Source: Lingula anatina
Taxonomy: Eukaryota > Animalia > Brachiopoda
NCBI GenBank assembly: GCA_051362555.1
Contig: CM120649.1
Coordinates: forward strand, 11,904,001 to 11,968,000
DNA length: 64,000 bases
Direction of reading: 5' to 3'
Shown piece by piece: positions 11,937-64,000 of the stretch. Positions within the stretch are counted from its first letter, which is position 1. Every line of letters starts with the position of its first letter. The position numbers and the translations under genes are program-made. Below the pieces are notes generated by a model that worked only from the letters and a program-made list of their open reading frames with translations, was not told the origin of the DNA and made no database searches.

Positions 11937-16858
<4,922 letters not shown>

Positions 16859-36317: not shown

Positions 36318-37529
36318 TGGATGTATGCCCACACATGCTTACAATTGTCCAGTCCATGTTTTACCTGGTTTGTCCATAATTGCATCTTGCAATGAGCGAT
36401 GAGCAAAGGTGGGGAAGCCGACCAGCTGAGCCAACTCGTGTCTGGTGCTCAGCAACCTCTCTAATATCGCCTCCTGGTGCTCCAAACGATACAGGTACAG
36501 GCGATAGGCAACCTCTCGCACCTAGGTATTATAAAGATGAGGAATTATTATAGCTGTTAATAAATAAATACAAGAACAAGTTCAATTTTGATTTGTGTTT
36601 ACATTTTAGTGTTTTCTTTGATGGATGAATGGAGGATTTATTTCATATATTCTTATATATATATAGTATTCTTGTCATAACTTTTATCATTATCATGAAT
36701 ACTTCAGGAGACTCCACATATAAACTACTGTACGATATTTTCAAGCCATACAATTTTCTCTTGTTATATCACGATTCCAGTTAATAGGCAAAGTATATGA
36801 ACTTTCAGTTAGAACCAAAGAAAAAGTCCATTCCACATGATTAATTTTTTTCTAGATCACAATAACTCAATTTAAAATGTGACAAATATTTTTTTCAGTT
36901 TTTACAACAGTTCTTTCCAAGTCCAGTGTGCTGGAGCATGGTAAACAATATCCCACAACTTGTTTCAAGGCCATGACTTATTATTTTGATAAACCACACC
37001 CATAGTTAACTCACTCTTTCTGACTGGTGGTATGGAAACATTCCTGTGACAGCAACATTGTCTCCATCAATACCAAATCTAGAAAAAAATCAAATCTTAG
37101 ACTTAGCCAAGTTTTTACTATAAACTACCTTTTATTTAATGATATATGTTTTTTTTGTTTTTTTTACTCTTTAACTCCTAGGGATATGCCAATAAATATA
37201 GTATGCACCAATATACATAAATATTCAACATGTCTTCACACAGTCAAATCTACAGCAGGTTCTAAAATATTAAAACCAAGTTTAAGTCTACTCTGGGCCA
37301 AGAGAAATCAACCGTACATTTGTTCATAATGTCCAGGCCAAGAAAAAATAATTTTAGAAAATAATTTATTGCTTCAGACTGATTGCTTCATTTGTATTGT
37401 TTGAGCCATTACCATGGTCCACATTAAATTAAATATATTTTAAGCCTGTCTTATGACAAACCTGGTGATTATTTCAGAGTGGACTTATAGTGAAGAAAGC
37501 TAACCTTTTCAGGCAAAATTTCTTTTCTA

Positions 37530-37579
<50 letters not shown>

Positions 37580-40350: not shown

Positions 40351-41908
40351 TTTTTGTGATTTTTAAAAGTATTTGAACACTCTCCTGTTGTTCTTGTTCT
40401 TTTTTAATTTCTCCTTTTTGGTAACTTCCTTGCTTCCTTGCTTCCTGCAACTACAGAAAAAGGACAGAAAAATGGTAAATATTTTAACAAATTTTCAGTG
40501 ATCACAATGAAAAATTCAAGTACACGTACATGTAGTCCCATACAGCAAGCAGCATATAATTCAGAAAGAATATAAGGATACATACATAAAAGGCTGCGTG
40601 AACCTTAATTGTTACTTCAATAAATTCTGGAATAAAATACAACGTAAGGTAATATTTTTAAACTCTCGAGTCGAGAGCAGTCGAGACGGGGATACTCCGT
40701 ACACTATGAAAAAAAGCACGATATTCAAAACATATACATAAGAGTAATTTGGTATAACTGACATGAAATTCGGCTTTCCTTCGGTATAATTACTTTATCT
40801 CAGCTTTAAAAACGATTAAAGGCTATTAATGTTACGTTATTCATAACTTACCTCACTCGCGAGTGTTTATTTCTGCATGATTGTTTGATAAGTAATATCT
40901 TCGTTCCTCCTGACACGGAAGAGTTGGCTCAACTAACACAATCTAAAACTATTAGCACTACTAACGCATTGATGTTATAAGACAACAAGGCTTTTTTTCA
41001 GTCTATTCTACAACTTTTATCAATATTATCTGCTAAGACAGTTCTTCTATTAGCGATTTTAAAAAGATGTTTTCTCATCAATTAGTTTTCTTTTAAAGAA
41101 AACAGCAATGACACATACTGGTGGGTGACATTTCAACAAAATTTATTTTTCACTTTAAAAATATTAGTGAAAACTCATCAACAGTTTAACCAATTTAAAA
41201 AGTAATTGTAAAATACATTACTGTTATTTAATATTATCACAAAAAATGCTTTTAGCAAAATGAAGAAGTATTATATATTCAACAGATGGTGATAAATTGA
41301 AAGTATTTCTGCACTATTCAAGTTATTCACATCTTCCAGTGCACACATTTTATACAAGAGTTAAATTTTTGAGCAAATCAACATCATTTTTAGAAAATAT
41401 ATATTTTAAAGAAAAGTTTTAAACCTTCAGATGGCATTTTGCATAGTTTTGTCACAACTCTTTGGAGAGTTGATGGAGCATTTTTTACACTGAATAGCAC
41501 TCTTTTACAACAGGATATGCTATATTGTGTTTTACCCTTCGATCATATATTTACATTTTGTAGCAATAAATATAAATACTAATTACACAAGATGACTTTC
41601 ATTCAATTTCAAACTTGTTAATTACTTATGACATTTTTTACAAGTCTTTGGGATTTCCATTAAATTTGCACAGCAGAATAACAAAAGTCAGTTCAGTAAG
41701 TTTCCCCGACATGGCAGCCAATGGGAATATCTTTCAACTTAACTGAAAGCAAATAATCTTTTCTCCAAAATAACATTGATCATGGCACAAATGACAAATA
41801 ATTGCTCCTGAACTTATACCCTTTTCACATAAATTTCCTATGAGAACACAATTATGTACAATAGTATTATTATTATATATATATAGCCTTTTTCATAAAA
41901 CCAGGAAC

Positions 41909-41912
<4 letters not shown>

Positions 41913-41986
<74 letters not shown>
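41913..41986. repeat. (TA)n microsatellite
   Basis: Uninterrupted TA run. Similar runs at ~53047-53086 and ~63094-63176; (CA)n at ~37534-37576 and ~53423-53461; (GATA)n at ~44036-44073. Confidence 0.95.
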
Positions 41987-41987
<1 letters not shown>

Positions 41988-42300
41988 ACTGACTCCAATG
42001 ATAGACATTTGCAAGAACAACTTTCAGTAAAAAAGGTAATGGGCAAATGCCATACATATCTGCCAGTGATAAAAGGACACAAAAGGCATGCACATTTTTG
42101 GAAATTATGCAAATCATAACACATGTGAATGAATGTACCAGTATATAAATTAAACAATGAAATACCAAAATACATACCCTGTCAATACAAATTCCAAGTA
42201 TTAATACTGGCAATTAAATACTTTTTTAATTGAGCTCATAGGGTGTAATTAACACTAAAACATTTCATCAGGCTTGTGGCCATGATAACCATACTTAGTA

Positions 42301-44034
42301 TCACGTATTTGTGAGCTCTTCCAGAGTGAGTAAGTCAATATCTATGGTCAGGGAGGCTTCTGCTCTTCGACTTGACTGTTTCACTTGATGCACAGAGTCA
42401 TTATTATTGTTGTTGTTTTGATTTAAATGGGCCAAATCATTATCCTGTTTGCTAATTACAGGGTTGGAATCTGGTTCTCCAGTTCCATCTGCAGTGTTTA
42501 GTGTTTCTTTGTTTTTATTTTCATCTTCTTCTTCAGTGACAAAGAACAGCACGCTATCTTGCTGCTTTGGATCAACAGTCATTTGATCCTCTCCAGTTTC
42601 CATGTCACCTTCTTTACTGGTTACTCCATCTTGATCTGTCATTGATAACCCTGTATTGGTCTCCTCTTGTTCTCTGCCAACAATGCCTTCAACTGCCATT
42701 GGTATGGACCTGTCTTTGATGTGGGCATCACCAGCACCCTCCACTGCCCTGTTTTCACTTTCATGTTGATGACTGTCTTCCTTGAGACTGACCTCATTAT
42801 TCAAATCATCCTTTGGTTCAGTAGCCTGTTCAGGAATAACTTGATTGGCAGGATCAACTTGTTCATCCTGACTTTTGTTGGCCTCATCAACCTCCTCAAT
42901 AAGCTCATCAAGGTCATTCCCAATGTCATTTGCATTAACTCCGCCTGTGACACTGCTGTAGTCCAGCATGCTATTACCCCTTGCTGTGGCGCTTTCTTCT
43001 GCAAGCCCAGTGTTGTCCTCTTCCACCAGAGTGCTCGGAATGGCCAGATCCTCTTGTGATTGGGATTTCCCTGTGGGAAAAATATATTTTTTATTAGCAA
43101 GGACAATTAAGGATCAAGGGCTCTGAAAAAGATATTTAATTCACACCATCCTTTTCTTGGATTTAAATAATGAAAATAATGAGTGTATCATATTGCATTC
43201 AACAAATAAATAAATATATTATACATGAAGAAGAAGAGAAAAACTGCCTCACCATCAGCTGCTGATTCTGGCTTCTCTTGTAAAGCTGCCACATTTTGCT
43301 CAGTGGTGACCCCTGGTGTCTTGGTGGTCTGTCTTGGAGTATTCACAGGTCTTGCTGTCACTGCATTAGGGCTCCACACGGATGCCTGGACACCCTGGAC
43401 TTCAATACTGTTCATTAGTGGGTTGTGGGCACTCAGTGGAACTGGGGCTTTCTGATATTTGGCGCCTTTCAGCTGTGCACCGCTGACTTTAACTCCTATA
43501 TAAATTAATTAACTAATTAATATTTTATCAAAATAACTTGGTTATTGATGTAAGGCAACAAGTGATTTCAAAATGAAAGTGAAAGTACTTGGTCAAACAT
43601 CCACAATTTACTGAATAAAACCTAATGAGAGAAATTGCCAACAAATTAAAAAGAAACAAAGTTTTTCTAGTGGTAATCAATTGGCTGCTGGTACGATATT
43701 AACTAACTGGATAATAATATATATCATTTTAATAGTCAAATCTTAATATAATTCATTGCCACATAAATACAGACCAAATATCACACTTACCCTTCAGTCG
43801 TATGTCCTTGGGCAAGTCAAAGAGGAACAGGTTCTTCTTGCTGTTGTCTCTGGCACTGGAGGGCCGTTTCCTGCTGTCCTGCATGCTTCTGGGTATGTTT
43901 GGTGTGGAGGTGGCTGGGGTGGGTCTGGAGAGATGGTGAGGATGAGGAGGAGGAGGAGGGAAGGAGTCGTGTCTACTGGAGAGATGGCCTGCCTCAGTCT
44001 GTGGGTGACCATGATTCCTGGAATGAGGGAAATC

Positions 44035-44074
<40 letters not shown>

Positions 44075-46364
44075 GGACAGAAAATGATTAGGTTAAACAA
44101 TTATTTTATGCCACTCCCTTAATTAACATCCATATTATTATTATTATTTATAAATGAAAATGCACTTTCTTAAAAGTTAAACTAAGAAACTAAAAGAAAA
44201 ATAAATAAATAAATAAACTTAAATGAATAAAAACATACAAATAAACTTGAGCTTTATTATGACTCACCTTGCATGCCTCTCATAAACTGGTGGGTAGGTG
44301 GAGGAGGCTTCAGGAAAGGTGGTCGCAGAGACTGAGGCATGGCCAGACCCTGAACCGGGAGTATTCTCTTCATCAGAGTCAGAGCATGTAGATTCTGAAA
44401 AATATTAACGATAAGTTTTGAAATAATAATCATACAATGTGCATGAACTACAATGAAAAATACCAGTTACTGAAAAATGAGTTGATCACATTTGTGTAAA
44501 ATATAAAAGATGTAACCATGTTATTTGAAATTAATTATCAGTGTTACATAAGAGTAAAATACATAATTGTTTTATAGCAGCAACAGCAGTAACTGCTTTA
44601 TTTCGACAGATTTGTAAATTCAGTGTCTTTTTTATCAAAAATATACAATTATGTTAAATAGCAAGTGTTTTACATTGAAAAAGTACTGTGATTTTGACAT
44701 TACCTCAAAAACAGAATGAGAAACTGCTTTTATAATGTAGGCATATTTAAAGACAGATGGTGGATAAACAGCAATTTCCATTACCAAATTAACAAGTGTC
44801 ATTATTTTACAAACCAAAAATTATTCAAAATCAATGGAGGAATTGAAGTCACAGGTTAAGTGAAATGCAAGTCACCATCAAGTGCTTTATTCTAATTAAA
44901 ACTAATGATTTCCAATAAAGCAACCATGTGTAACATTCAGCGTGAAATAATTGGAACATAGAGAAGTGGATTATCAAATGCAAATCCCATAAATCTGATT
45001 CTAGGGAAACTGAAGGGCCACAGGGTAAAACTGAATAAATATGGTAAAAATTCTTCAATCTTGAAATCATGCACTATTTGAATAATTAACCTATATGTAT
45101 AAATAAATAGATAATTGGCAAACAGGATATATTAAATAATGTTAAAATAAATGTGAAATGTGAATGGCATTTAGAAATACATTACCTTTCTTGTAAGTAG
45201 TAATCTGAGTAAAATAACATATCAACATTCAATTAAACTAATACTATGTAATATGTAAAACAGCAGCTATATATTTTCTGGTTTCACTCTGCTCATAGAA
45301 AATGATGTCATTTTTTATTTCTATTTTTTCCCATTTGAATACTTCTTCAATTTTTTTTATAATAGCCAATCATCATTTAACCAAATGTTGCAATGTGGCT
45401 GACATTAGTCATAAATATACAAAGTCTTGGCCTAAATCTAAAGACAAAAAAGAGAAAAAATGAAGCGATTATCTTTGTTTGCATTCAATTATCTTTAATT
45501 CCTTTCAAATTATGTTTTCTTTTTGCCTTTTCTTTTTTTTCTTTTTGAATTGATGGCAGTAGAGTGAATCCAATTACACTACAAAAGCTAATCATAAAAA
45601 GCAACAATACAAATAAACAACATTAATTAGATAAATATTATTAAATCATACATTCAAGTATTAGAAATCCTTAGCACAGTTACACAACAGATCGCAGCGA
45701 ACATGTTACTAGCAAATACATTATTAGTAATTTTAGTCATATTAGTTTATCACTTATAACCGTAATGACCCAATCTTTTCAATGTGGCAAAATTATCAAT
45801 TTTTTAAATGCATGATTTTAGAATCGTGAAAATAATTATACATCTCTGTGGCTTTTGTTGTGTTTTTTTTTCTATATAGAATATAAGTATGAAGTAGTCT
45901 TTGTTTGTGTTTAGTTGCAATAATAATGTACGTTCTATCTTTGAGAATTTATGACTTGAAAAAACACACAATCTGTAAAATTCACAATTTTTGCCCATTG
46001 AAAAGATAGAGTAATTACAGTACCTACGGGTCAGCCATACGGCAATTCCCTCACCTTGAGGTGTCCCAGGCGTGTGTTGGTCAGATCTATACTGGTCATC
46101 TACATGGTCAACTATATTGCCTTCAGCGTCCTTCATCTCTATGGTTTTCCTTATTTTCTCCACAAAGAAGGTCTGTCCTGGGTTACTGCGAGGCATGTAG
46201 ACACCAAACTTGAAAAGGCTTTTTGAATCTAGGTAGTGGGCACTGTAAATGAAATGCCATGTGATAATAATCATACTGTCAAAAATTTTTTTTTTCAGTT
46301 TGGATTAAGAATTTACCTTAGGTTCTTTTCGTAAAGAAAAAAAAAAGAATTCCAGGTGAAAAGA

Positions 46365-46405
<41 letters not shown>

Positions 46406-49278
46406 ATAATAATAATAATAATAATATTCATTTGAAAAAACAAATAATTAAATAACTGGCATAGCCATAATCCTTGTTGGTGGTGGAAAGTGGAGGGGGG
46501 GGGGGGGGGTACTTCCTGGTCATCCTTCATCCAGTGACTTAGTTTAATTCATACATAGACAAAATAATCCAAAATATTTCATTTGTCATGCTGTGAGGGA
46601 GGCTCACACTGTCACTAATAGGTAATATTAATTTTCATCTCTTCATTATTATTTAATTTTTTTTTTTTTTGACAGAACTTACTTGTTGTATCTTGCCCCA
46701 ATAAGAAAAGAGTGAACAGACTCTCCTGCTGGCACCTGAGGCTGAGGTCTGGAAGAATAACAGAGGTTAAACACATTTAAAAATTAATTTAAAATAGACA
46801 AATATATAAAAGCATAATTAATATGAAAAGTGTTGTTTTGTGCTACAGTAGTTTCTATATCTATTTTTTTTCAAATTCAGTCTTGTAACACAGGGTGTAA
46901 TGACCTATTTAGAAATTATTTGTACTTATTTAGAGCACATAACATAATAGAAGGAAAAAGAGTGAGACTGTTAGTCTTTGGTAGTATGTGGCCCGAATTT
47001 TTAAACATAATACGTGATAAAATTATTTTTAAAACTTACGCTCTTCTAATACCGCTGGATGCACTCTGCGGCCTGCTGACTGGTGGCACTGGAAACATTT
47101 TAATAAATATCATTACTGATAATTTACATCTGACTTATGAAATTAATATAAAAGACATTTGCCAAGAATGTGGTGTATTTTGATATGTTACATAACATTT
47201 TACTTCATCCATCTAAAAGTGGTAAAAAGTTCTTATGAAAATAATTTCTTTGAACCTCTCTCTCCCACGCAAAGTTATACTTGGGGAGTATACTGTACAT
47301 GTATATGCAGGATATGTCATGATGAAGTATTTACCTCTTGGTGTTTGTCGCCTTTGTTCATAAGCATTCACTGGTGCTGAACTGCATCTGTGTCTTGCTC
47401 GCAGTAAACTTTAAAAAAAATAATGACAAAACTGATTTATATACAGTTGTGACCTTGATTCTAAAAACTCTCCAGAAACAGAAATCCAGAATAAGAGATT
47501 ACAACTTGTTTCTTAACAAAAATGCATATGAAAAGGAATTTTCAAAAAGATCATAAATAATGAAAATATAAAATCATGATAAAAACATCATAGCCACAGT
47601 TACTTATTTTAGGGGTCACTCTACACGATTCATCAGTCCCAGTGCTTATGCATATAGTGTGTGTACTTACGATGCTCTCGTCGGCTTTCCAAGCTGCACA
47701 TTCACCTCATTCATTGCGCTGTTTTTGAGTTCTGTGGTTGTCAAATACTGATGAGTACTATTTGGTCTGTAAAATGTTTGCCCATTTTGCTTTAGTGGTG
47801 GAGCACATTTGTTAGGCTGAAGTAAAGCCTTGTGCCATTTTATTGGGCCATTTCGTTGCTCCAACTGAAATTTTATGGAATATTTTTAATTTGATATATT
47901 TTGTCTTCAAATGTTTGAAAAAATTAAAGAATGGCATGCTCAAAACTTATACATCAGAATAAAAACCAAGAAGAAGGACAAAGTTGGACCTATATCCAAA
48001 CATTTATTAAACCCCTTAAAAAAAAGTAAAAACTTTCTGACAATAATTTAAAACCTGTCTTATATCATTATTTCATGAATATTTATAAAAGGACTGCATT
48101 TTATCATATTTTATCAAATTCAGCAACAAAAAAATCCTTAAGTCTTCACTTTTATTAGAGAATTCTACCCCACACTTACCTTGTTTGCTGGCAGCAATTT
48201 TGACAAAAACAACGGCGACTCTCCTGAATGGGAGACCTGATTGCTGATATCCATCACATATTTTGGCGTGCCATGTTCTGCCGTGAACTCATCCTCCATA
48301 ATGTGGTTGATGTCATCTTGGAGTTCTCGGTGGTACTCTGCACTGTGGTTAAAGGAGTACTGACTAGGAGGGTGTCGCTTGCTTCCTGCAATTTATTTAT
48401 TAAAAAAATTTTGGTAATTTTCAACTAAAATTTTAAAGTTGAAGAACTATAAAATGAACTGAGATTAATAGTGGTTTTGAATAAGAGAAGGTATTGACAG
48501 GTTTAATTGACTTTTCTGGAAATAAAAAGTGATGAATTCAAGGACTACATGTACAAGCAGTTTTGATTTACACATGATATTTGTTTAATCTAAGCACATT
48601 TAACTTAAACTGAATTAAATTAAAAAATCCTTTTTAAATGAAAATATGAAAAAAGAGATCCAAGCAACTGTAATTTACACATCGGAAATTATTGAACTTC
48701 TTTATGAAATTCTTTTAAAATTAATTAAAAATCCCTTTTAAGCAGTTTTTAAGTGACAATCAACATTTCATCAAAAGTTTAAGTAAAGAAAAAACTGTTA
48801 CAGAAATATAATACATTGTATAATATCCCATTAAATTACCTAAAAAGTCAATTAAGCATTTCATGATTTATTTTCATGACTTACTTGATTTTAGAGAGAA
48901 TTATCAATAAATCTAATTAATTTAATTTCATGCCTTCATCTCAAATCAATTTTTTTAAATACATTTAATAATATTCAACCATTCCTCTCACAAAAATAAT
49001 TGTGAAAAAATACCAAATTTCTGACTAAATTGATGGTAATTGGTTAAATTTATCAATACTCAAACAAAACAAAAATCAGGAACTACTAGCAGCAAGATTC
49101 CACCACTTAAAAAAAAAAAAGAAAAACATTTCCAACCTATTGGTGTCAACTTTTTTCTCCCCATTTTTGGTCCTGAGCTACTAAGAAGCAAGGATAGGTA
49201 AGACTGGTCTCTGAAACTGCTACTTGTATTGGGTAGTGTCTGTACCCTTCGGCGTAAGATTTCCACTTCTCCATGCAT
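42301..49278 (-). CDS. Uncharacterised, largely disordered protein with acidic C-terminus, ~11 coding exons
   Basis: GT-AG exons join in phase: approx 49137-49278, 48180-48385, 47671-47864, 47335-47408, 47040-47088, 46683-46748, 46055-46242, 44268-44394, 43791-44017, 43252-43496, 42301-43070. No family recognised. A probable non-coding first exon lies at ~51606-51890. Confidence 0.7.
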
Positions 49279-51874
49279 TTTATCCTTTTTTAAAATTGTC
49301 TTTCTGGGAACAAAGTCATGTTCCTAATTCTCAGCAAAGCAAGTCACGAATCAATGTTTTTCTTCTCTATTTATCCTCAAAAAATTACATCTTTCCTTAG
49401 TTAATCCTTTTTTCTTAGCAACTAAATTTATGTACAAGTAACGCTTCTCACGTCGGTCTTCTGAATAATGACTTGAACCCAGCACAAATAAACAGCAGTC
49501 GCTAACCATTTTAAACACGCTAGACTAAGCTGACCAAAGAAAAACAAGTCTCATTGACTAACATAAATATTTAGGGCATCACCTGTAACAGACTGTATTT
49601 AGAGAACACACAACACTAACAATATCCTCACGCAACATCAAATAAGGTGGCACTTTTCAAATATGTTTTCGTTACTTTAAATCCTAAGAGGACCCCTTTG
49701 TTCAAGTAATAGGCGGCTTGTACTCAAACTAAGAAAGAGGTATTTGATATAAGCGGTGCCCGTTGAAAGCTGTTTAAAACAAAAGGCCTCCTGATTTTTA
49801 AGAAGTGTGCTTGGCCTATGTTTGAACCGACAAAACATGTATATGTATCATACCCCCTGCGTTTTAACAGTAAATACAGACATTTCTCACACCCTGTTCA
49901 GGTTCATATTTTTATCAATGAAGGTCACTTCTTGGTAACAATGCACATGTACAAGACCAATACTTTTGTTTCAGTGGCTTGGCAAAAACATCATCCTTAG
50001 CCTTTTGTGCAAATCACCATAAAATGTCCTGTGCTTTGTGTGAATTATGTGCGTATATTTACAGTAGGTCTACGTGCACAAAACCACATTTTTGGATTTT
50101 AAAGGAACCAAATGGTTCTAAACAGGTTAAATGGAAGAGCTTATTTCTAACTGAAAATGACTTGAAAACAAAATGTTATGTATTTTGACAAAGCACTTAC
50201 AAACACATGTACCCTGTACATACAGTACATGTATCTCAGATCTTCAGATTTTTATTCAACCTTTTAAAATAACATCAAACAACAGTAACAACATTTAGTC
50301 AAATTATAATTTAATTTCAGTACCTTAAAAAATGTACCATACAGAAAAGACCAAGAAATTATTATTTCCAGCTTAATGTTATTTACATTAAAATTCACAC
50401 TCAGCAACACAGCACAAAGGTGTTTGGGGGGTATAACAGCCAAAACTAAATACAGACAACAAAACAAACTAAGTTGTATAAAAAAGAAGAAACAATTAAA
50501 TAAGAAGAATATGAAAAAAAGAGAAATAAGATGAAAATACTGGGTAGATTACCATCAACTCAGCACTTCAAATTGTAGATTCAAAACCATGCATATGGGA
50601 ATAAAGATCACCATTTCACACTCATAAAATGGACAGTAACAGTATTCAATGACAATAAACCCAATTGTTACTCAGAACCTTACATGCAAATAAATTTGGA
50701 AGACAGGGGTTTGGGGGTAAAGTAAAGATTTAAACACATTCACAATAAAACAGTTTTACTTGTAACTTGTAATTAAGTCAAATATGAAAATCTACACACT
50801 GCCACAAGTACAAGAAAACAGCAAACTCCTTACTCTCTAGGGCAATTTTGTGAGCTGTAAACAAATAGACAGATTGAAATACTGGGGTAGTCGCTTTCAA
50901 AGCACAATTTTTACTTTGAATCTCAAAGCAAAATGTTAAATTTAAAATAAAATATTACTATTACTTGTCATCATAAAGTCATTATTTTATGAGTTATTAA
51001 TTATGTTTTTTTTTTTTTTCAAAAACAGGTATATCTGTAATTAACCCAGTAGCTAACGAACTATTACATGTACCCCACACAACACACAGTGCTACTGTAC
51101 TTAGTAGCTGTACCCTAGCTACCATACGCCAGTCTAGTATCACTACTGGAGTAGTGTCAACCATATGCTTTTAAAAGGAAATTGTGCAACCATATAAATT
51201 ATAATTTTAATTTACCAATTTCCACCATGACAAAACGCTTAAAACCCTCTAATAGTACTTCAAACTAGACAGAAATGTTGCACTGTCATACTGTACTGGT
51301 CAAAATGAATTTCTCAATTTTGATGGTTCTTTCTCAAATAAATCAAGGCACTGCCAATGAACATATTGACCATGAATATATAATCGTTCTTACAATCTCT
51401 CAGGCTAATTACATTTAACTGGTATTAATCAATGAATAATGCGAAAAGAAACAATTAGATATTGATTTCAATGCAACATAATTGCCATGATCAGCCAAAC
51501 AAATCCTAGCCTAGGATCTGCAGCGGATAGTTGGCATGCAGTCTGGTGATAACATTATTCATTTTTACCCTCGACAATAAATAATTTAATGAAATAATAA
51601 TTCACCTTTAAATCCCTGACCAATATTTGCATCGGAAGCGAACTGTCGCTGGCGGTCCTCGTATGAAAGATCAAGACCCAAATACCGCAATCCCTGACTT
51701 CGGGATTTTCGCATTTGTACGCCGCTGCGTGAATTGTTCTGATCGCTGAACACCATCTTGCGGTGTTGAGTCGGGGACTTAAATCATTCACTCAAATTTC
51801 CACTGCCAAACCATTTAGAGCGATATGTTTAACGTAATTCTAGCAGAACAATTGCGACTCTTCACTCTTGATGG

Positions 51875-51970
51875 CAGTCGCCATGTTGTTTGACCTTTGT
51901 CATTCCATAGCAACAGTGACAGCCCAGTAGTTGGCGCTGCCAGCAAGGAAAGTTGGGAATTCCCAACAAG
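51875..51970. promoter_or_regulatory. Bidirectional promoter with perfect NF-kB-type site, YY1-like motif and RFX-like half-site
   Basis: GGGAATTCCC at 51955-51964 within the 16-bp palindrome GTTGGGAATTCCCAAC (51952-51967); CGCCATGTT near 51879-51887; CATAGCAAC near 51906-51914. CpG-rich; flanked by splice donors at 51605 (-) and ~52023 (+). Confidence 0.6.
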
Positions 51971-52800
51971 AGGGGACAAATACTTGAGCAGAGCTTGAGG
52001 AGCATTTTGCTAATCAAAGCAGGTTAGTAGTCGCTTGACAGGGATGTGATTTTTTTATATTTATTTTTTGTTTAGATTTTTACCCTCCTTCTAGCACAAG
52101 TGTGTTCTCTTCGTATGAAATAAAAGAGTTGATAGAATATTCTTTCGCTTTCGCATGTCGTTGACGTCATCCTGATAACGTGAGTTAGATCTGGTGTAGC
52201 TGGCAGTATTATCGAGTATTACTATTAGGGCGTCGAATGTGCCGTGAGTATGTTTTTTCCTTATGATCAGTACACTGTACAAAAGGCAAAATATTTGTAT
52301 AGGCAAAATACTTAGTTCTGATTACGTACAGTACTTTGTACTGGGCATACCGGTAGTTGAGGTTGTTGAGATAATGACACTTACTTAGTTTCTATTCATT
52401 TTTTAAGATATTGAGTAGTATATGTGTCCATTTGGCTTCCCCTGCATATTACCGGTAGTACATATTATTATACATGTACATTATATCTCACAGTGGACAA
52501 ATTCTACTCGTACGTTGCATGTACCGGTACTGTATTTGTATCAATGTTGAATATTAAGATGTGTTTATATTGATTAAATAGTATATAAGTTTTAAAAGTG
52601 GGAAGGGAGCGAATAAAATCTATACTAAGTACAAGATTAGATTAAAACCTTGAAAATGGGAAATCGATACATGTGCATTAGTTAAAATGGCCAAAATTTG
52701 TCAAAATACTGGTACTGCAGTAGCTATTTTTCCCCTTATTTTATTATATATAATATACTTTCTCTCTTTATATACACATAGATAAAAAAAATCACAGAAG

Positions 52801-53041
52801 ATGGCGTCACCAACAAGCCAAGCAAAGCCTCCAGGGAACCAAGAATTTTTGAAGCGCCTGAATGATAAAGGTTATAAGAACTGGTTAAAAGGAGCACAGT
52901 GCCTCAAAGAGCTTTGCAACGGATTGGCATCTTTTTGTGAGAAGGAATCACAAGCATTACATCAACAATTGAAAAAGAAAGTTAACTTAAAGCAGACATG
53001 TGGGACGTGCAGGAGCAAAAATATTATCAAGGTACAGTAAG

Positions 53042-53089
<48 letters not shown>

Positions 53090-53421
53090 TCTGAAATTTA
53101 TTGTGTATATACCAAAGTCCTAGTTTAAGCTTTTGCCACTTTTGATATTTTTATTCTTAAAATTCTTGAGCTGTCAATGTTATCTTCAGCCTGAAGCCTT
53201 CCTAATTTTTAACATGACCAAAAACAAAATCAGTGTGCACTTACATGTAGCTACTAATCTCAGTACCGTATGGTAATTTTAGTATGTTACTCTTTTTTTA
53301 CCTTAATAAAGGGATCTATTGTTCCATGCTGATCTTATGAAGCCTTCTCAGATTAAGTGTCTTATTTTTTACACAAAAGATTTGGTGAACATGTAATTGC
53401 GATACCTCATAATCAATTTCA

Positions 53422-53467
<46 letters not shown>

Positions 53468-54115
53468 ATTATTTCTATTTTCTACAAGCAGAACCAACTG
53501 AAGAATCCCTGTCCTGTGGGTGTGTGTGATAAATGGGTCAAGGAAATAGTAGCTGTTCATAAATTGAAAGGTAATAATTTATCATATTTTTGCCACTGGG
53601 ACCTTCCAAGTGGAGACAAGGCTGGACAATGTTGCCTTCACTTTTTTTTAGCAGATATGTGATCTAAAGTGTGTGTGTGTGTGTGTGTGTCAGGGGTGGA
53701 TTTAGGCCGTCTTCTGGGTCTTCCGGAAGACGGTCAGATTTTTAAGTTTACGTTGTCCGGCATCTAATGTTTTCTGTCGGAAGACGGTAAAAATTGGAGG
53801 ATGGATCAACAAAAATAAATTGGAAGACTGTCAGAAATTACCTTTGGATCTGCCCCTGTGTGTGTGTGTTTGTGTTTGCGCGTGCATGTGTGCGTGTGTG
53901 TGTGTGTGTGTGTGTTTTCAATCTGTGATAGTTATACACAATGTACCAATAAGTTCTGAACATAAATCGATCCTCATTGTTGATACATGCACATTGGGTA
54001 TGTCTTCAGTACTGGCCGGTGTAATAAGAAAATGTTTGTTTTTGTATTTTACTCATGCTCATGCACACTTTTCCTTTATAAGAGGTAAGTTATTAGTATT
54101 AGTATATATTTTTTA

Positions 54116-54164
<49 letters not shown>

Positions 54165-57100
54165 TTCACATAAACTACATGTAAATTTTTCAATTAATTA
54201 TTTATAATTGTATTTTTTTTTGGCAGAAGTGTTTTGGACCAACTGTTCCCTGGATCAAGTGCCCACCATCCACTGGGAGGTGGCCAAGTGTTTTATGAAC
54301 CGTGGTCAAAAGTCAGCCAACACAGGAGCAGCAACCAGTGACACCTCTGCTCTCCTTAATCTGCTGAGAAACTGTAAGCCAATCAATGGCAAGTTTACAA
54401 ATAAATCCTGTCCAGAAAAGGTAGATATTTTTTAACGTAATTTATATTTGATTCAGTGTCAGCTACACTAAAAAAGGTTGTCAATCTGTCTGTTTTCATA
54501 AATCCCATGTTTTTACTCAATTTGTAAAAAAAAAAAGAGAAAAGAACCATGGGCATAGGCTGCAGGAGACAGATTGGGTGGGTGGGGGGAGTTGTCATTC
54601 CACCTGCTAACACATTACATTCTTTGATTTATTTATTTACCTAGGCTGCTCAAAAAAGAAATCAGTTGATGCATTCCTCTGATATGACATGGACTGACAC
54701 ACAGCTTCAAGAGTGTGTTGCTGCCTTGGTAACTTTACTGTCAGACACAGCACTGGCCCAAAACCAAGATGCAAAGAAGGCAATAGCAACCATCAAGCAG
54801 GTAGTGTCCGTGTGTGAAGGTGTTGGGCTGAAGTGTGTTAGTTGTGGCAGTGCTTTTGTTGGGTGTGACTGTGCTGAGCTTGAGTGTGTTAGGTGTGATG
54901 GTGATTGTGTTGGATGTGACTGTGCTGAGTAGGAAGCATCATTTTGATTGTGCTTGATGTACAAAAAAAATGAAGCATTTTACTTTATTTGTTTTTGTAG
55001 AAAAATCAATGATGGTTAATGTGTAGAGTGAAGTATAATAAATAGATATAGCTTCAAGACGCACTGGATATAAGATGAAAGAATTTCTGCAAATTTTCTT
55101 TAGATTTGTGGAAGTAAGTTCCATATAAGTGAGGAGGATTTGGAAAAGATTGAACTGGAAGTTCTAAAAAACAAGATGGAAGAAATTGAGGAAACACTGA
55201 ATGAAGCCCAGCAAATAACCCCAGAGGTAAAGAAACATTATTATTATTAAAGAAAAAGTGCTCTATAGAGTAACAGTTAGTAATCGCCTTGTGAGACAGT
55301 TAGTTACCACATGTTAGTAGGTTTATGTTTAAAAATCTTGAAGAAAATTTTTTCTTCACCAATGCCACTGCAAGCATGGAAGGACAAAGATGAACATTTA
55401 GTTAGAAAAAAAGACTGCTTGGGACATTTCATCAAGAAATTGATTTTTGTATCTTAAGATTATCCATATGTGCCTTAAGATTTTTCTCAGATGTTTCAAG
55501 ATATTTTTCCAGGTATTCCAAGATTTTTCAAGTTAAAATTATAATTATTCTCTTGTTGTTGATCTTTTTCAGCTTACAAGTGCCTTGGCTGCATTCACAG
55601 AATTCTTGAAGAAAAACCCTGACCTCTTAGACAAACTCAAAAGTAATCTTGAGGAGCTGCAGAATAACATGGAGACACTACAAGACAGGATGGATACCCT
55701 TGAAGGTATGCATTGTCAGTATCTTCTACTTGTTCAAAAAGAAAGAAAGAAAACAAAAAACAAGTGCTAATGGCAATTAAGCACTTAAATTGTGTCCCTG
55801 TATCATCCTCTGAAATCCAGTTTCACTTCACCAAATAAAGAATTTATTATATTTTCTTTGACGTTGGCTTGCCATTGCATGGTTTGCCACAAATATCACA
55901 AAACATTTTGCATTAATTCAGTATCTAATATAATTTTCAGAATGGACTGTTATTCAGAATATAAAAAAGGGAATACTTTTTCAACTGGTTTGGGGTCTTT
56001 TGATATATATGCATATGTGAGCACTCTCTAGTTCAGATCACTTAGCCAGAAATTTAGATTAAATTTCAATGTCATTTCCATAAATCTTTTAATTAAAAAA
56101 AAGATAGCACAACATGCATGTACGTGAAAATTACAATTGCTTACAATTGCTTAAGCTTAAAAAGACTCCCAATGTTGACCATTTTACATTTTGCCCATGA
56201 CATGTTGGAAAATTTGTGTATGGGACAATTTGTGTGTAAATGATATAGCATTATTATTATTATTATTATTATGTAAAATTGTCATATCTTAATTATTTTA
56301 TCACCAATTATACTTGGCTTATTACTTCTGGGAGCTACTAAACAAGATTCAAAAGTAAGAACTTGGTACTATACCAGAATATTGTATTTTTTCTAAATTC
56401 TTCTTTTTCAACATTCCAAAAAGGGAGGCAAGACCAACAACAAGAAAAACTGGAGGACTTAATCGATGCAGTTAATAACTTGAAGTTAGGGCAAGGCAAT
56501 AGCCCTGATGGGAGAGGTAAAGCAATGTGGAATATGTAGCATTAATATTAGCGTATAATTATATTTCTTTTTTATTAACAGTGAATTATTGACTCTTGCT
56601 TTACTACTTATTAAAATAAGATACATAATAGCATTATGGCGAATGAAAATATCTAGGCACTAATAAATTTTCCAAATAACTGAAAAAATTATTTTGATTA
56701 TTAAAATGAGTTTTTTTCATGATTATCAAAGATTGTGTTTCACTGTAATTCAGAAAATGATTCTGAATTAAACATCTTTTACTGCCCAGCTCTTTGTTTG
56801 TTTTTATGTTTGTTTCAAATTATCTAAAATTACAGGCAGTGCCTCAGTTCCAGTTGTAAACTACAAGAATGCCCTGCAGGACCACACGCAGAGTTCGGGA
56901 CTGAAGCTTCCTGTTTACACACCAGTCACACCACCAGATGGCAGAGGTGGCTTTATTTTCCAACACAAGCTTTAGCTTTATAAAATCAAAACAAAGATTA
57001 AAATAATCAAAATAAAGGTTTTAGAAAAATGAAAAACCATCTTGTTAGTTTGGTTGTTGAGATAATGACACTGAGTTTCTATTCATTTTTTAAGATATTG

Positions 57101-60047
57101 AGATATCATCTCAAGCGAAAAATAAAATATACTGTATGATACTATTGATAGTGTTATTGGAAAATTTTGTTTAAGTGTTTTAAAGTAATTTATGCACTGT
57201 AACATTACTTTGGATATTGCCTGGAATTGGTGTGTACATAGCTGGGTTACTTCTACCCCTCAGGTGTAGCAAAGACCTATGATGATCTTGTCTTACGACT
57301 TTTTGTTACATGTAGGTGGAATTTGTACGCTTTCCATTTTACAGTTCAGCACACTACTAATTTGTAATGTACAGGGAATGGTACCATACATATTATAATC
57401 TTTTCATTAAAAAACAGTGACATGTATACATTGTACGTGTACAATGAATGTCTGACTTTAGGTTATGGTTCCAAAGTCACTGTAGAAGGGAAGACGTATT
57501 GCAGCGAGAGTCAAAACCATCCACGCAAGAGAGCTGCAGAGCAGGATGCTGCTAGGGTGGCATTGCTGCAGTTAGGAAGACTGGGAGAACAATCGGGTGG
57601 GTCTCGGCTGAGAATGATGAAGGACCATTTCACATTGTGTGCTGTACTTACATTTACAAGTGCATCTGTATGGCAATGTTTTGACTTTTGGTACCCAGTA
57701 GATACTTGCTAGTATTTACACTACATGTATGGGAGGTTTTGCTGTCTTTTTTTCAAGTTTTCTTCCAACTGTTTGGACCTATCAAAATTAATCCAATTTA
57801 CTGTTTGAGTCAAGTGTAGGATCACATTTAGCTGACTCTCATATGTACATGTAATAGCCTGGCGTAGAATTTGTTATTATAGCAAGACTAATTAAATGTT
57901 GAAATTTAAGCCCAACCAAAGTTGCATGTGCATGTTTTAGTATGTAGTTTCATTACTTGATTAATGAATGTTTTACATGTATGTAGTAATGTTCCCACCA
58001 TTGATATTTCATAAGAAAACTTTCCTTTTTTTCCTGTAGAATCCAAGCAATCACCAAATATCTCGCCTGGAAGTAAAGCAGCACCAGAATCACATACAAG
58101 TGTTTCATCAGAACTCAAAAACCCATCTGTAAATTCTTTGAAGGCATTGCAGAGGCTTTCAGCCAGTCAGCATTGGAAAGAGCCACATTTTGACCTATCA
58201 AATTTGAAAACAGGAGAGGTCATCTGCATGGTAACCGTAGAAGGTGATCATATGATCCGCACCAAAGGTACCTCCACGTCTAAGAGACTAGCAGAACAAG
58301 CTGCAGCTGAGCTTGCTTTGAAGGCAATGAATATTGGCCAATCAGATAGTGGCAATGGCAAGGAAATTCTTTATCGCTACTGCTCCAGCAAAAGTAGTAA
58401 TAAAATTCTCCCAGTTTATTACAGCTATGGCGAAGGTACTGGTATATATTCATTAGATTTCTTTTTATCTCCTTGTTCAAGTTGCAATAATTTGATATTT
58501 CTTTAGCTCATTAAAGTGGATAAAAATTCTGTAGTTTGTTTTTATGGGAGGGGGTTAAAAGGACCAACACCCTATCAGCTGGAAGAACCCCACTTATCAA
58601 AATTTAATCAAGATTCTTTGCCATTTTTTTTACTCACAGGGACAGCGTTCAACTGCATTCTGAGGTGTGACTACCTCACAAACAGCAATATAAAGATCAC
58701 AGTCAAAAGCAACCCTTGTCCAGATATTAGTTCTGCAAAGGAAAATGCTGCAGAGAAAATCCTGAACATGCTGGGAGAGTTGGGGTTGTCTTCTGCTCCT
58801 GAATCATGTGACCCATTGAAGACAGTGGCTCCATCTGTGAGTGGTGAAAATGTGCATACCAGTAGGGTCACTGCAGGTAAATGCCTAGTCTGGTATCTTG
58901 GGCACACATACTGTTGCTTTATATTCAATTTTCATATGTTTAAATAATTATTATTATAATTTTTTGACCAAAAATGATAGAATTTAATTAATTAATTAAT
59001 TAATTAATTAATTAACCAGTTAATGCAGAATATCTGGTGCTATGGCACATAATTTCAGGCTCCCCAAACAGAGAATCACCTGAACCAGATGTAGACACAT
59101 CTACTGCAATGAGGGACATTGAAACTTTGCTGCTTAGAATAGGATGCCCTATGCCCAATTATAGAAAGACAGTGTCGCCCCCAGGTGGCCATTTTCTCTC
59201 GTCTGTCCAGTTTGTTTGCAAGTACGTGATGGCCAGTTCAACGGGAAAGTCCAGTAAGAAGATGGCTGAACAAGATGTGACAGGACAAGCTTTAGATTCC
59301 CTGCAGCTTGTAGTGCCACCTGATGGTAATAAAAAGGGTGCCCTTATCGAATATTGCTCCAGTCAGCCTGGGCGACACCAGCCAATTTTCTTCACTTGCA
59401 AAAGTTTCTCTGAGCCAGATTTGTTCAGTTCCTATCTATTTTCTCCCTACTTAAAAAACCAAATGGTGATAAGCATTCAAGGAAAGGCGCAACCTACTGA
59501 GGAATTGGCCAATCAGAGTGCAGCGTTCAATGCATACTTTATCATGAAACGGCTTAAAATGGATGAAATGCTGGAGAAAAATATGACTGTGACATTGGAC
59601 AATCATCTGCTTGAGAAAAAGCTTGACCCAGCCAAATACAGAGTTCAGCCTGCTGGAGATAAAAGTCAGTTCTTGGCAATAGTGCAGTTCAAGTATATCT
59701 TCAGTACAGAGGAAAGTGGTTATCCAACAAAAAAAGATGCAGAGAAAAAGGCAGCAGAGTTTGCCCTGAAAACTCTCTTCTCTGATGCAGACATTCCTAG
59801 TGATTTGAACCTATGTAAGAGCAAGCTGCAAGAAATTTGTTGCATCCAAAACCGACTGTTTGAACAGCCTGCAATTCAACTTAATCCACCAACATATGAA
59901 ACTGTTCCTGTTGCAGAGAAGAAATTTGTAAGTAGTGTCAGATTCCCAGTTGTCGTTAAAGGAAAAGCCTGTTTCAGAGAGGATTCTGCAAGACAGGTGG
60001 TTGCGCGGGAAGCCTTGTGCAAGATCGGCCTAATGGCTGAGATTTGA
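52801..60047 (+). CDS. CXorf38/DUF4559-like HEPN domain + coiled coil + ~7 double-stranded RNA-binding domains (~959 aa, 12 coding exons)
   Basis: Exons 52801-53031, 53489-53570, 54227-54420, 54645-54800, 55104-55226, 55573-55705, 56424-56516, 56836-56946, 57462-57596, 58040-58435, 58640-58876, 59059-60047 splice in frame (2880 nt). N-terminus follows recalled human CXorf38: RLNDKGYKNWLK, VCDKWVKEI, WTNC, WEVAKCFMNRG, DTSALLNLL, RNQLMHSSDM, EFLKKNPDL. C-terminus has repeated dsRBD signatures: NYKNALQ...PVY...KRAAEQDAARVAL; SKRLAEQAAAELAL; SKKMAEQ; TKKDAEKKAAEFAL; KSKLQEIC...PTY. Confidence 0.88.
53691..53858. mobile_element. MITE-like element (~168 bp) inserted in a (TG)n tract
   Basis: Imperfect terminal inverted repeats CAGGGGTGGAT ... 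ATCTGCCCCTG; internal repeats of GGAAGAC(G/T)GT including palindrome GTCTTCCGGAAGAC; TG microsatellite on both sides. Confidence 0.6.
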
Positions 60048-62063
60048 ATATATACCAGACACATGACTACATGTAGGGAGGTCAAGGGGTTGGACAAACC
60101 ACACTTTAACTTTGCAAAAGGTCCTCTCTTGGTACAGTTTGATCTAGGTACAAGAAAGTTTCATGGTAAAAGCCCCCCCCCCCCCCTGGTTTGGGACTGT
60201 GTACATTTACAGTACACTTAGCATAATCAGTTGTTCCAATGCTTTAATTGACTACATGTAAACATGCCTCTGTAAGAAAATAACAATTTTTCAGTATTCA
60301 ATTTATCATAGATCAATCATGCAATCAGTCATTTGCTCAATTAATAAAGATCCAACATGATAATGGCAGTATTGTTTATTTGGAGACTGAAATCAATACA
60401 TTTTCAGCAAACTTTACCGGTATGTCCTGAAAACATCTTGGGACAAAGTTATCAATGCTTACAAGCAACTTTCAAAGAAAGAATTTAAAAGTTTTGTATG
60501 CTCAAGTAATTGTCTAAGATCAAAACTTGATATGTAAAATCAGTTGCCCTTGATTAAAATGAATATAGATGGTAGATTTCAGTTTGATTTCTGTTATACC
60601 AGTATTACACTCAGAAGTTGTTGTTATTGTTTTTAAATATTTATTCCTAGTCGTCCATAACAAGTATTAAGAAAATTTACTGAACAGAATATGCCAGTGC
60701 ATGGGGGTTTATAGTATTAAACAGGTCACACCTGTTATGTATGAATTTTTGCAAGTCCAGGTTGATTGCTGTCATAAATCAATATACCATTGTAGTCGTG
60801 TGCAGTGCTGCTCATTTTGTTAAAGATAAACAAATGCAATGCTTAATGTGATTGTGATAAATGCACATATTTTGAAAAAATAATTTTTAGTTGCTCTTGT
60901 TACCAAGAGATGGAACTGTAAATTTCTCTCATGATAATAAAAACCAACTACTTAAAATTCCAAAACATATAAGTATGGTCCTTTTTTTGAAAGGGTACAC
61001 GTTTGCCTTTATGTTTATGATAAGAATGGTGCTGAAATTTCTGTGAAAATTTAACTTTCACTATATAAAAATGTAATGTTCTTTTTGTGTGCAATTAAGA
61101 TTTTGACATTGAATCAGTTGCTTACATTAGGGAAGTGATGCTTGATACAACAAATTGTTTTACATGTTATGCTTTATGTAATTAATTTTTACATGATATA
61201 ATTGAATTCATTGTTTTTTAACATTTTATAATTGATATAATTATTTGCTTTATGTTATAAATGTAAGATATAATTATTTGTTGCTCATGTTATACATAAT
61301 TATATATAATTATTTCTAGTATTTATCTGGCATCTGGTCAAAGTAAATGTGTTTCTACATGGTTTGTGTCGACTGGGTTTTGTAGGACTTTCAACAGCAT
61401 CATCTTTACAAGTAGTTGTGAGGCCTCTTTCACTTACATGTAACAACTTTAAACCAAAGTTGGTCAAAACTATAGTTCAATTTAACCCAAGAAAAACCTC
61501 ATTCAGTTACAGTAAGAATGTATTATGTAATGTTATAGAAATGAAAATGATAAATGAAATTGGTGTTTTCAGAGTTTTGTCCAAAAAACACAACAAACAT
61601 ATGTACATGTAACACTGCTTTGTCTACAAAGGTTTACTTTTACATTTATTTATACATTTTGTCTTTTTTAGCAATATTAATTTCCTGCATAGCTAATTTT
61701 TATAATTGAGACACACTACCCAAACAATGTAAACTGTACACTAACAACAGAAAAACTGATAGTACAGAGGTCGACCTCTGAAAAATGTCAATCGGAAAAG
61801 TGCTAGCCAGTCCAAATTGTTCTCATTATTATTTATTATTATTTGTCTATGAGAGTCCAATGACATCCACAAGCTTTGAGCAAATAAATATTATTTCACA
61901 GCTTGTGTAGTTGAGATCTTTCTATTTTATTCATCATCATCATGCTGAAGTTTAGGAGGAAAAGTCTGCCAATTGCCTTCTCATAGTCCAGTCATAACAG
62001 AGTTAACAAATCATCTGCACCAATCATAAAATGGCTTTCAGCTCTCAGAACAGAGCCGGCCAA

Positions 62064-63090
62064 TCAGACCTGGAGTTGATGGGAGGGGCTCCCATAATAC
62101 ACCCCTCGCGAGTACCCGGGTCTTACCATCACATCAAACCTGCGCCCAAAGCAGCAAATATAACTGGTGCCGATGATAGAGAATATGGCCGCCATCAGAC
62201 CAACTACAAGATTAACCCCCTCCATAACAAGGTTCTGGTTGAAGTTGGGGAAGCATTGGTCTTCTTTCCACCCCTGGCATACCCCCAGGCTCCAACCTGT
62301 GAAGGCTATGTTGAAGGCACACATTGTGATTCCTAAGTTGCTCAGGCCAAAATGGGCCAGTACCTGGAAAAAATTGAATTATTGGTTCAGTGATCGATAC
62401 TGAACTGAATTCTGATCGTTTTGGTCCATCCGCTCTGTTGGTGATATTTCTAAGATATTAGTGTGAGTGAAAAATTAAAGAAATGAAAAAAATCAAAGAA
62501 TTCTGTTATGGAAACATGTGCTTCGTGACTGAGTCGGGCATCAAATTTTGGAGAAAAATGCTTTAATTGAGACCAAAACTGCAAATTATACTCACTTTCT
62601 TTATTTCCATGCTTAACATACAAAGGCACATACTGTATCTTTATTGCAAAACTACAATTGGTAAACAGACCTTTTTTGCTTAGAAAAATACTGAGTACTT
62701 ACCAGAGATCTTAGTTTCCTGTTGTGGACACTTTTATAGGTATTATATTGTGTGGCAAAGCCGCATGCACCAGCTGCTGCCACCTATAATGAAAAAGTTA
62801 AAGTGAAAGTGAAAGCCTATGAACATATAATCTTAACATATTCTGCCTACTTCTGCCAACATTTTTAACTGTCATATAAAAGTTATGACAAACTGAAAGT
62901 AAACAGCAGTGTTCTTAAATTATCCATCATAAGACCTGTTGGATCCTAGATTGTAAATAGAGAAGCTATCTTATTAAGAGAAAAATAGCGATGGTGGGGG
63001 ATTTCCCTTGCCTCCCCCCCCCCTCATTCGTTTTACGCGTATGGCTGAACTTATAACCTCTAATCCCCCATAGGCCCTTCATGCTCCTAT

Positions 63091-63178
<88 letters not shown>

Positions 63179-63287
63179 TAAAGAAATTGAAAATAATAAT
63201 AATAAATGAAAATGGATAATTGAGGCCAGAATAAGGCCAGAAATAAATAAATAGACTTACTTACTGACAAACAAACAAACAAACCAA

Positions 63288-63318
<31 letters not shown>

Positions 63319-64000
63319 ACCAATCTCCACTTACCACAATACCAGACCATATGGGAGATCCAGAGACCAGGGGCCACCCTCCAGTGGGAAGGGCAAAGTT
63401 TAACATGACAATGCCAACGATGACACTGACTGTCCCTGTCCCTATCTGACAGAGGGACAGACGGACAAGGTGCGTGATTGCCCTCTCTATCGCCCTCTGG
63501 CGGCCACCTGGAAATAAATGACAGAGGTCGAGTTTAATTCAAATCCAGATTAAAATCGAGCTACAGAGGCATAAAATGTTATTTTACAAACTTCCAAGCA
63601 TTTTATCAATTAATTTTTACAAATATTTTATTTATTTCATTTCATATTTGGCATCGTTTTTAACCTTTACGCTTTCTAAAATACCTCCCCACTCATCAGA
63701 AGTTTCAAAAATGTTCCTTTTGTTTGTTTGAACTTCATCTAGGCCTATTAATTCATCTCTCTATTAAATCAATTATTCAAATGAGGCTTTTGTTTTATCA
63801 ATTAAACTTATAACAAATGATAAAGTAGATGGAGATCTACACAAACTACAAAAAAGTCGACGTGTATCTAAACAAATGTACAAGCAGAGCTAAATCCTTT
63901 GGAGATAAAATTCCTTTAAGTAGAGTATGCCGTGGGTCACGTGCTCACCTGTATCCTGCAGTGAGGGGGCGCCACAGTGGTGGCAGAAGTTGGAGCTGGT
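62064..64000 (-). CDS. CD20/MS4A-like four-transmembrane protein with N-terminal zinc-ribbon half-site (5' end outside window)
   Basis: Exons 63949->64000 (TSSNFCHHCGAPSLQDT), 63335-63507 (LSLCQIGTGTVSVIVGIVML...GSPIWSGIV), 62703-62783 (VAAAGACGFA...), 62064-62363 (two more hydrophobic helices with a C-x7-C loop, stop TGA) join in phase. Confidence 0.65.

Follow-up and report, generated by a model that had tools for sequence, protein, structure and literature searches.

A 64,000-nucleotide stretch of the genome of the brachiopod Lingula anatina (contig CM120649.1, positions 11,904,001 to 11,968,000; hereafter the window) contains, on its forward strand, a gene in which a HEPN-type ribonuclease (RNase) module of the CXorf38 family is predicted to be joined to an array of double-stranded RNA-binding domains (dsRBDs). 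The original prediction, made from the letters alone, had assembled 12 exons into a single frame of about 959 amino acids (aa), and joining 12 coding exons at GT-AG sites indeed yields one 958-aa frame with its stop codon at 60045-60047. All 11 introns are of the GT..AG type and 182-718 nt long. The 11 donors match 6-8 of the nine consensus positions (mean 6.5), as compared to 4.5 for all 442 GT dinucleotides in the span, and the G+C content is 0.37-0.53 in the coding exons and 0.24-0.37 in the introns, every coding exon lying above the intron mean. Six combinations of alternative splice sites for exons 7 and 9 were compared; the reading frame stayed open in two of them, the model itself and a variant shorter by 3 aa. 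The CGTC, CPVGVC and RNQLMH motifs were found at the positions predicted for them (Table 1).

The HEPN and dsRBD exons very likely form one gene. Ten dsRBD-bearing homologues supplied their first 371-457 residues for a profile from which the window sequence was excluded, and this profile matched residues 17-412 of the model in one stretch (profile positions 4-377 of 378, 293 bits), and exons 1-9 each mapped to it in order. None of 200 shuffles reached the score for eight of these nine exons, and one of 200 did for exon 7. In addition, BLAST aligned residues 16-417 with two hemichordate proteins at 33-35% identity. The homologues used for collinearity are mostly gene predictions themselves. Because the profile match continues from the HEPN part into the first dsRBD, a single gene is indicated, and the predicted transcript retains both parts in one frame, as had been proposed. 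The alternative of two separate genes was rejected because of the collinearity together with the absence of an internal CpG-rich island: the observed/expected CpG ratio was 0.05-0.43 over 54001-60500, CpG being scarce along the body of the gene and elevated at 51500-52500 alone.

The Pfam family DUF4559 (PF15112) matched exons 1, 3 and 4 in profile order, with 47.3, 44.7 and 21.8 bits, respectively, the last falling below the cut-off of 27 bits. A HMMER scan with exon 3 returned 41 proteins, 39 of which have a DUF4559 match, the other two being unrelated repeat proteins; word-based homologue searches with exons 1 and 12, which have low sensitivity, returned nothing. The HEPN core was aligned in 26 rows, consisting of the window model and 25 homologues, with short fragments and near-duplicates left out. 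C67, C70, C84, C89, N109, E121, A123, K124, D142 and C153 were invariant in all 26 rows, and R173 and H178 were each present in 25. These two residues delimit RNQLMH (residues 173-178), the only Rx4H motif in the protein. The cysteines C67, C70, C84 and C89 make up a predicted zinc ribbon inserted in the HEPN domain, and D142 would be equivalent to human D134, judging from spacing alone (31 versus 28 residues before the Arg). Two bivalve members, P0024 (Potamilus) and P0060 (Mya), lack RNxxMH and may be inactive paralogues.

The module was linked to the HEPN fold because of four observations. First, the CXorf38 family was assigned to HEPN by Anantharaman 2013 (PMC3710099; this and the other published sources are cited here from parts of their text). 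Second, Pfam HEPN_Swt1 matched five of the 41 relatives, one of them above the cut-off. Third, in the model of a Ptychodera homologue (P0013, 668 aa, mean predicted local distance difference test score (pLDDT) 86), the N-terminal part is confident and all-helical, and the motif at 160-165 ends the helix 152-164, with a pLDDT above 90 there. Fourth, there is the TAMALE preprint on human CXorf38, described below. The available text of the supplement to the 2013 paper does not mention the CXorf38 family. A fold search with the whole 668-aa homologue model was uninformative for the N-terminal fold, since dsRBD matches filled the best 50 listed, with no HEPN among them. An N-terminal sequence profile compared with solved structures gave no HEPN and two weak unrelated rows, and PADLOC gave weak helical or coiled-coil matches only.

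Pfam matches in three exons and the conserved RNQLMH thus bear out the assignment to CXorf38/DUF4559 with an intact Rx4H motif. The coiled coil that the original prediction placed as a separate linker was recovered in part. A heptad segment is present at aa 269-326, whereas the helical segment is largely DUF4559 itself and is shared with the short CXorf38 of fish; just the final ~35 residues of the coil are additional.

The C-terminal part contains seven dsRBD-like repeats, detected by an iterated profile at 29-65 bits with the window repeats included in the profile, and arranged as one single repeat and three tight pairs with linkers of 6-9 residues. Against the Pfam dsrm cut-off of 23 bits, repeat 2 scored 35.3 bits, and repeats 1 (half), 4, 6 and 7 scored 17.8-21.2 bits; repeat 5 gave a Dicer_dimer match of 24.2 bits, and repeat 3 a weak DND1_DSRM match only. 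In a leave-one-out profile test with 300 shuffles, which is fairer than the iterated profile, no shuffle reached the score for repeats 1, 2, 4, 6 and 7, two did for repeat 5, and six for repeat 3. The alpha-beta-beta-beta-alpha fold of dsRBDs was found. In dsRBDs, the KKxA motif contacts RNA and lies at the second helix; within each pair, the first repeat is KKxA-like and the second is not. The predicted number of about seven dsRBDs therefore stands as a count of repeats, although three of the seven are without KKxA. For exon 12, the ESM Atlas contained generic dsrm clusters only (best 0.90), and a single-sequence fold was unusable (pLDDT 32.8). A viral library search gave dsRBD-type matches and long, poorly fitting ones.

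Pairs 1 and 2 are duplicates of each other (z 15). Elsewhere, amphioxus has three repeat pairs, located after its first two repeats, and the hemichordates have one. When 36 repeats, labelled by position, were placed in a tree, seven of the eight second-of-pair repeats from the window, hemichordates and amphioxus grouped together (86/86, not starred), and because of this grouping the tandem pair is probably old. The homologue model has, in the pair's first repeat, a strand of 11 residues that continues directly into the following strand in place of the customary hairpin, and the two paired domains could exchange strands. In the public model P0006 (Saccoglossus), a hydrophobic stretch at residues 325-350 splits the first dsRBD, which looks like a mis-predicted exon boundary.

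The best solved matches to the repeats, by sequence profile and by structure, were plant DRB4 and HYL1, with DUS2 and DHX29 close behind. Since HYL1-like proteins were inferred to have been lost in Bilateria (Moran 2013), the plant-DRB-like repeats in this animal gene are a lead worth a proper phylogeny. A role in a small-RNA pathway appears improbable to us; in this reading the repeats, being of the DRB/HYL1 type, would associate with Dicer or with its duplex substrates, whose trimming or clearance would fall to the HEPN part. The Dicer partners of the HYL1/DRB type consist of dsRBDs only; the window protein carries a HEPN domain and resembles them in its dsRBDs only. The cnidarian Hyl1Lb was considered as the same protein and dropped, the extra domain named there being NUDIX.

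DUF4559 was accompanied by dsrm in 4 of the 41 proteins of one scan and in 9 of 12 in a second, two of the nine having been in the query. Eleven distinct dsRBD-bearing homologues were obtained, from amphioxus (two), hemichordates (two), teleosts (six) and one further record, and RNxxMH is kept in all of them. The original prediction had called for a survey across invertebrates, and the layout of the window protein recurs in hemichordates and amphioxus as well as in teleosts. Its statement that vertebrate CXorf38 lacks dsRBDs applies to the short forms only, as the teleost dsRBD-bearing versions are 997-1167 aa long; a member of their cluster is named si:ch211-91p5.3, and literature searches for the name ch211-91p5.3 found nothing. 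Novelty of the fusion was likewise not supported, since PMC3710099 listed CXorf38-dsRBD fusions from vertebrates, amphioxus and acorn worms and proposed action on double-stranded RNA (dsRNA) substrates such as viral replication intermediates. The HEPN-dsRBD architecture and the broad idea have been known since 2013, and the window gene is an added member of the subgroup described computationally in that year.

In bivalves and amphioxus, the HEPN-helix-coil module is found joined to NACHT, LRR or nSTAND3-ankyrin parts. NACHT or nSTAND3 accompanied the N-terminal module in 6 of the 41 matches in one scan and in 2 of 12 in the second, and DUF4559 is present in 45 of 99 NLRPs from Corbicula (PMC8298618). 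In the HEPN tree, the amphioxus dsRBD-bearing and NLR-type forms grouped together (96/99), and therefore the C-terminal part appears exchangeable. This sister relationship in amphioxus, with NACHT/LRR on the same effector as the predicted dsRBD forms, is new in the present analysis. The dsRBD label requires at least three changes on the HEPN tree, and the repeat number varies from 2 to 8 across homologues. The window HEPN domain is a long separate branch that joins none of the supported groups, and for this reason the window protein may derive from a lineage not represented among the sampled ones.

Upstream of the coding exons, a CpG-rich region is the likely promoter, shared with a divergent multi-exon gene. 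A 5' untranslated region (UTR) exon probably ends at 52021, with the donor read from the sequence. A palindromic NF-kB-consensus site and a site like the interferon-stimulated response element (ISRE) lie nearby, and such sites coincide in 1.7% of the 500-bp tiles and in 0.3% of 5000 shuffles; as candidate sites, they may place the gene under the control of NF-kB and IRF. A near-identical sequence of ~50 bp at 52362-52416 (5' UTR intron) and 57052-57105 (intron 8) is probably a small dispersed repeat.

This setting bears on a housekeeping or non-catalytic role, in which structured RNA of the cell would be processed or bound by the protein, much as by Las1 or by the inactive HEPN pair of Swt1, with no link to infection. 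Consistent with this role, the gene stands as a single copy in the window among housekeeping genes, with a shared CpG-rich promoter, and other eukaryotic HEPN families have such functions (PMC3710099). In contrast, the variable repeat number and the repeated C-terminal swaps look like conflict-driven evolution, and the intact motif argues against a non-catalytic role. We regard this explanation as slightly less probable again than one in a small-RNA pathway.

Among the neighbours (Table 1), the scanned frames of the divergent gene gave no Pfam match, and its exons include a long acidic one. A long interspersed nuclear element (LINE)-type element sits between two groups of exons of a peptidase M3 (MIPEP-like) gene. 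The convergent membrane-protein gene, without a Pfam match, has NF-kB-like and ISRE-like sites of its own, and by eye it resembles MS4A/CD20. The sequence TACATGTA occurs 27 times in the window (1-64000), as compared to 2.4 expected from base composition.

Table 1. Coordinates of the predicted gene and of other features in the window
Feature	Position	Strand	Basis or remark
Coding exons 1-6	52801-53031, 53492-53570, 54227-54420, 54645-54800, 55104-55226, 55573-55705	+	
Coding exons 7-12	56424-56516, 56836-56946, 57462-57596, 58040-58435, 58640-58876, 59059-60047	+	
Exon 1: first helix of HEPN, first pair of Cys, C67 and C70 (CGTC, 52999-53010)	52801-53031	+	DUF4559, 47.3 bits
Exon 2: second Cys pair C84, C89 (CPVGVC, 53510-53527), predicted zinc ribbon	53492-53570	+	Cys invariant in 26/26 rows; 0/200 shuffles
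Exon 3: WEVAK core and invariant D142 (54340-54342)	54227-54420	+	DUF4559, 44.7 bits
Exon 4: RNQLMH (54657-54674), then helices	54645-54800	+	DUF4559 profile, alignment
Exons 5-7: helices conserved in the family, aa 232-290, and coiled-coil extension as far as about aa 326	55104-56516	+	Collinearity with homologues, heptad score, helices in homologue model
dsRBD1, aa 345-413, exons 8-9	56859-57580	+	KKxA-like, plant DRB/HYL1-like
Pair 1: dsRBD2 aa 450-517, dsRBD3 aa 524-597	58132-58779	+	dsRBD2 KKxA-like; dsRBD3 no KKxA
Pair 2: dsRBD4 aa 645-713, dsRBD5 aa 720-794	59103-59552	+	dsRBD4 KKxA-like; dsRBD5 no KKxA, Dicer_dimer match
Pair 3: dsRBD6 aa 804-871, dsRBD7 aa 881-954	59580-60047	+	dsRBD6 KKxA-like; dsRBD7 no KKxA
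CpG-rich region, likely promoter shared with divergent gene	51500-52500		CpG observed/expected 0.86-0.91
Palindromic NF-kB-consensus site GGGAATTCCC	51955-51964		9 strand-matches in window, 4.0 expected; post hoc
ISRE-like site GAAAGCGAAA, first (5' UTR) intron	52143-52152	-	14 matches in window, 6.2 expected
Divergent multi-exon gene	about 39900-51900	-	Long acidic exon 42304-43113
Convergent membrane-protein gene, exons	62000-63540	-	NF-kB-like 62997, ISRE-like 62805
LINE-type element	32181-36039	-	Intact 1130-aa endonuclease and reverse-transcriptase frame, zf-RVT frame
Peptidase M3 (MIPEP-like) exons	30924-31304, 36342-38526		
MFS transporter exon	7028-7387	-	
Long RS-repeat exon	15884-16870	-	
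Pro/Glu-rich exons of a further gene	21540-23520	+	

HEPN RNases have a composite active site formed from two motifs, and oligomerisation is the means by which NACHT/STAND domains activate the effectors N-terminal to them. For this reason, a dsRBD array in the NACHT/STAND slot would most simply act likewise on long duplex RNA, and the swap on the same effector lends indirect support, by analogy, to activation by clustering. We propose that the window protein is a dsRNA-switched sensor and RNase in one chain, in which long dsRNA binds several copies so that two HEPN motifs form the active site, and we give this reading an even chance. At rest, the enzyme would be kept closed by the helices that follow the motif, in line with the model of human CXorf38. 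The four KKxA repeats would bind duplex RNA, with the three degenerate partners bracing them or binding protein; the assembly of several copies on one duplex would relieve the block, and the active dimer would serve antiviral defence by cutting single-stranded RNA in its vicinity, whether of the virus or of the host. In section 15 of the TAMALE preprint, human CXorf38 is predicted to be autoinhibited by an occluding helical bundle and to form a canonical dimer after truncation. The helices matching this bundle are conserved in the window protein, and the model gives indirect support to the switch by supplying its putative resting state. Human CXORF38 is also among 39 low-titre open reading frames picked from a lentiviral library (PMC3520899), a weak indication that could reflect toxicity. 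The candidate NF-kB-like and ISRE-like sites by the promoter and the precedent of bacterial DARNA, described below, also agree with the proposed switch.

Alternatively, the dsRBDs might target rather than activate the enzyme, a constitutive, coiled-coil-linked HEPN dimer being carried to duplex or hairpin RNA and cutting at or beside it. The activity on dsRNA substrates proposed in PMC3710099 agrees with such targeting, as do the long heptad segment at aa 269-326 with the long helices in the homologue model, and the several RNA-binding repeats per chain, which would provide avidity without oligomerisation. However, a tether accounts less well than a switch for the NACHT/STAND swap on this effector, and the characterised HEPN RNases listed in bioRxiv 10.64898/2026.02.22.705581 cut pre-rRNA, mRNA or tRNA, not duplex RNA. 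We consider this alternative unlikely.

Several observations weigh against the proposed dsRNA switch. The coiled coil could make a permanent dimer, with no need for dsRNA-driven assembly, and the short CXorf38 forms P0014 and P0035 keep the motif without any sensor. In the array, repeat 2 alone exceeds the Pfam dsrm cut-off, and the KKxA-like motif is kept in four of the seven repeats (1, 2, 4 and 6) and absent in 3, 5 and 7. No second copy or paralogue of the gene was found within the 64-kb window, and thus no local expansion of the immune-gene type. The promoter motifs were noticed post hoc, with similar pairs near 42753-43575 and 62805-63007. The accessible part of an amphioxus poly(I:C) pull-down study names only DHX9, DHX15 and DDX23 (PMC6759578). 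Literature searches, with most subscription papers beyond their reach, found no biochemical test of any CXorf38 member, and the available main text of PMC12196990, which is devoted to human CXorf38, mentions neither HEPN nor a nuclease.

If the switch model is true, the protein would be a third cytosolic dsRNA effector in animals beside PKR and OAS-RNase L, made of a single chain, and a mechanism would be in view for the human orphan gene CXorf38. The dsRBD-array versions are the easiest CXorf38 members to test because their activating ligand is obvious; the window locus is not unique in this respect, as the amphioxus, hemichordate and teleost homologues would serve too. As a more tentative and rather doubtful extension, the ancestral CXorf38 may have been a dsRBD-bearing, single-chain, dsRNA-switched RNase doing the job of OAS and RNase L without a second messenger. 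It would have persisted in teleosts and some invertebrates, been coupled to NACHT sensors instead in amphioxus and bivalves, and been reduced to an orphan effector in humans. Its array would be plant-DRB-like, with a conserved tandem pair that may exchange strands, and its control might lie with NF-kB/IRF.

Overall, the window protein has the same order of parts, a predicted zinc-ribbon HEPN domain with RNxxMH, helices, a coil and a dsRBD array, as the CXorf38 HEPN-dsRBD fusions of Saccoglossus (XP_077869998.1), Ptychodera (XP_070539446.1) and Branchiostoma (XP_019634616.1, XP_066267097.1) and the teleost si:ch211-91p5.3-type proteins. The hemichordate fusions are 33-35% identical to it over about 400 aa, and tight repeat pairs are common to the window protein, amphioxus and hemichordates. 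Amphioxus has 8 repeats, the hemichordates have 4-5, and the teleosts have 5 that exceed 20 bits, as compared to a single repeat and three pairs in the window protein. Human and short teleost CXorf38 share with it all of DUF4559, the helices that follow the motif included, whereas two examples of short fish CXorf38 (309-311 aa) end before the coil extension and have no dsRBDs. Plant DRB4/HYL1 and the cnidarian HYL1-like proteins have the closest solved dsRBDs, but carry no HEPN domain and, as far as seen, no short-hairpin/long-hairpin pair.

RNase L has a HEPN-type (KEN) effector that needs a dimer, and PKR is driven by its dsRBDs to cluster on dsRNA. As compared to OAS-RNase L and PKR, the window protein has no second messenger and is a functional analogue only; its model consists of DUF4559, a coil and dsRBDs, and exon scans (exon 7 left out) gave no Pfam match to ankyrin, pseudokinase or kinase. 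Aplysia is described as lacking OAS and RNase L (PMC9334734). Bacterial DARNA (PD-T7-3) likewise has a HEPN domain at its N-terminus, whose site is occluded, and is activated by a foreign nucleic-acid structure, but it senses single-stranded DNA bound by SSB via an unrelated helical domain, as a dodecamer, and is not homologous to the window protein beyond HEPN (bioRxiv 10.64898/2026.02.22.705581). The DUF4559-NACHT/LRR and nSTAND3 proteins of bivalves and amphioxus have the same N-terminal effector and coil as the window protein, and their sensor is an NTPase with repeats, whereas the putative sensor part of the window protein is its array of dsRBDs.
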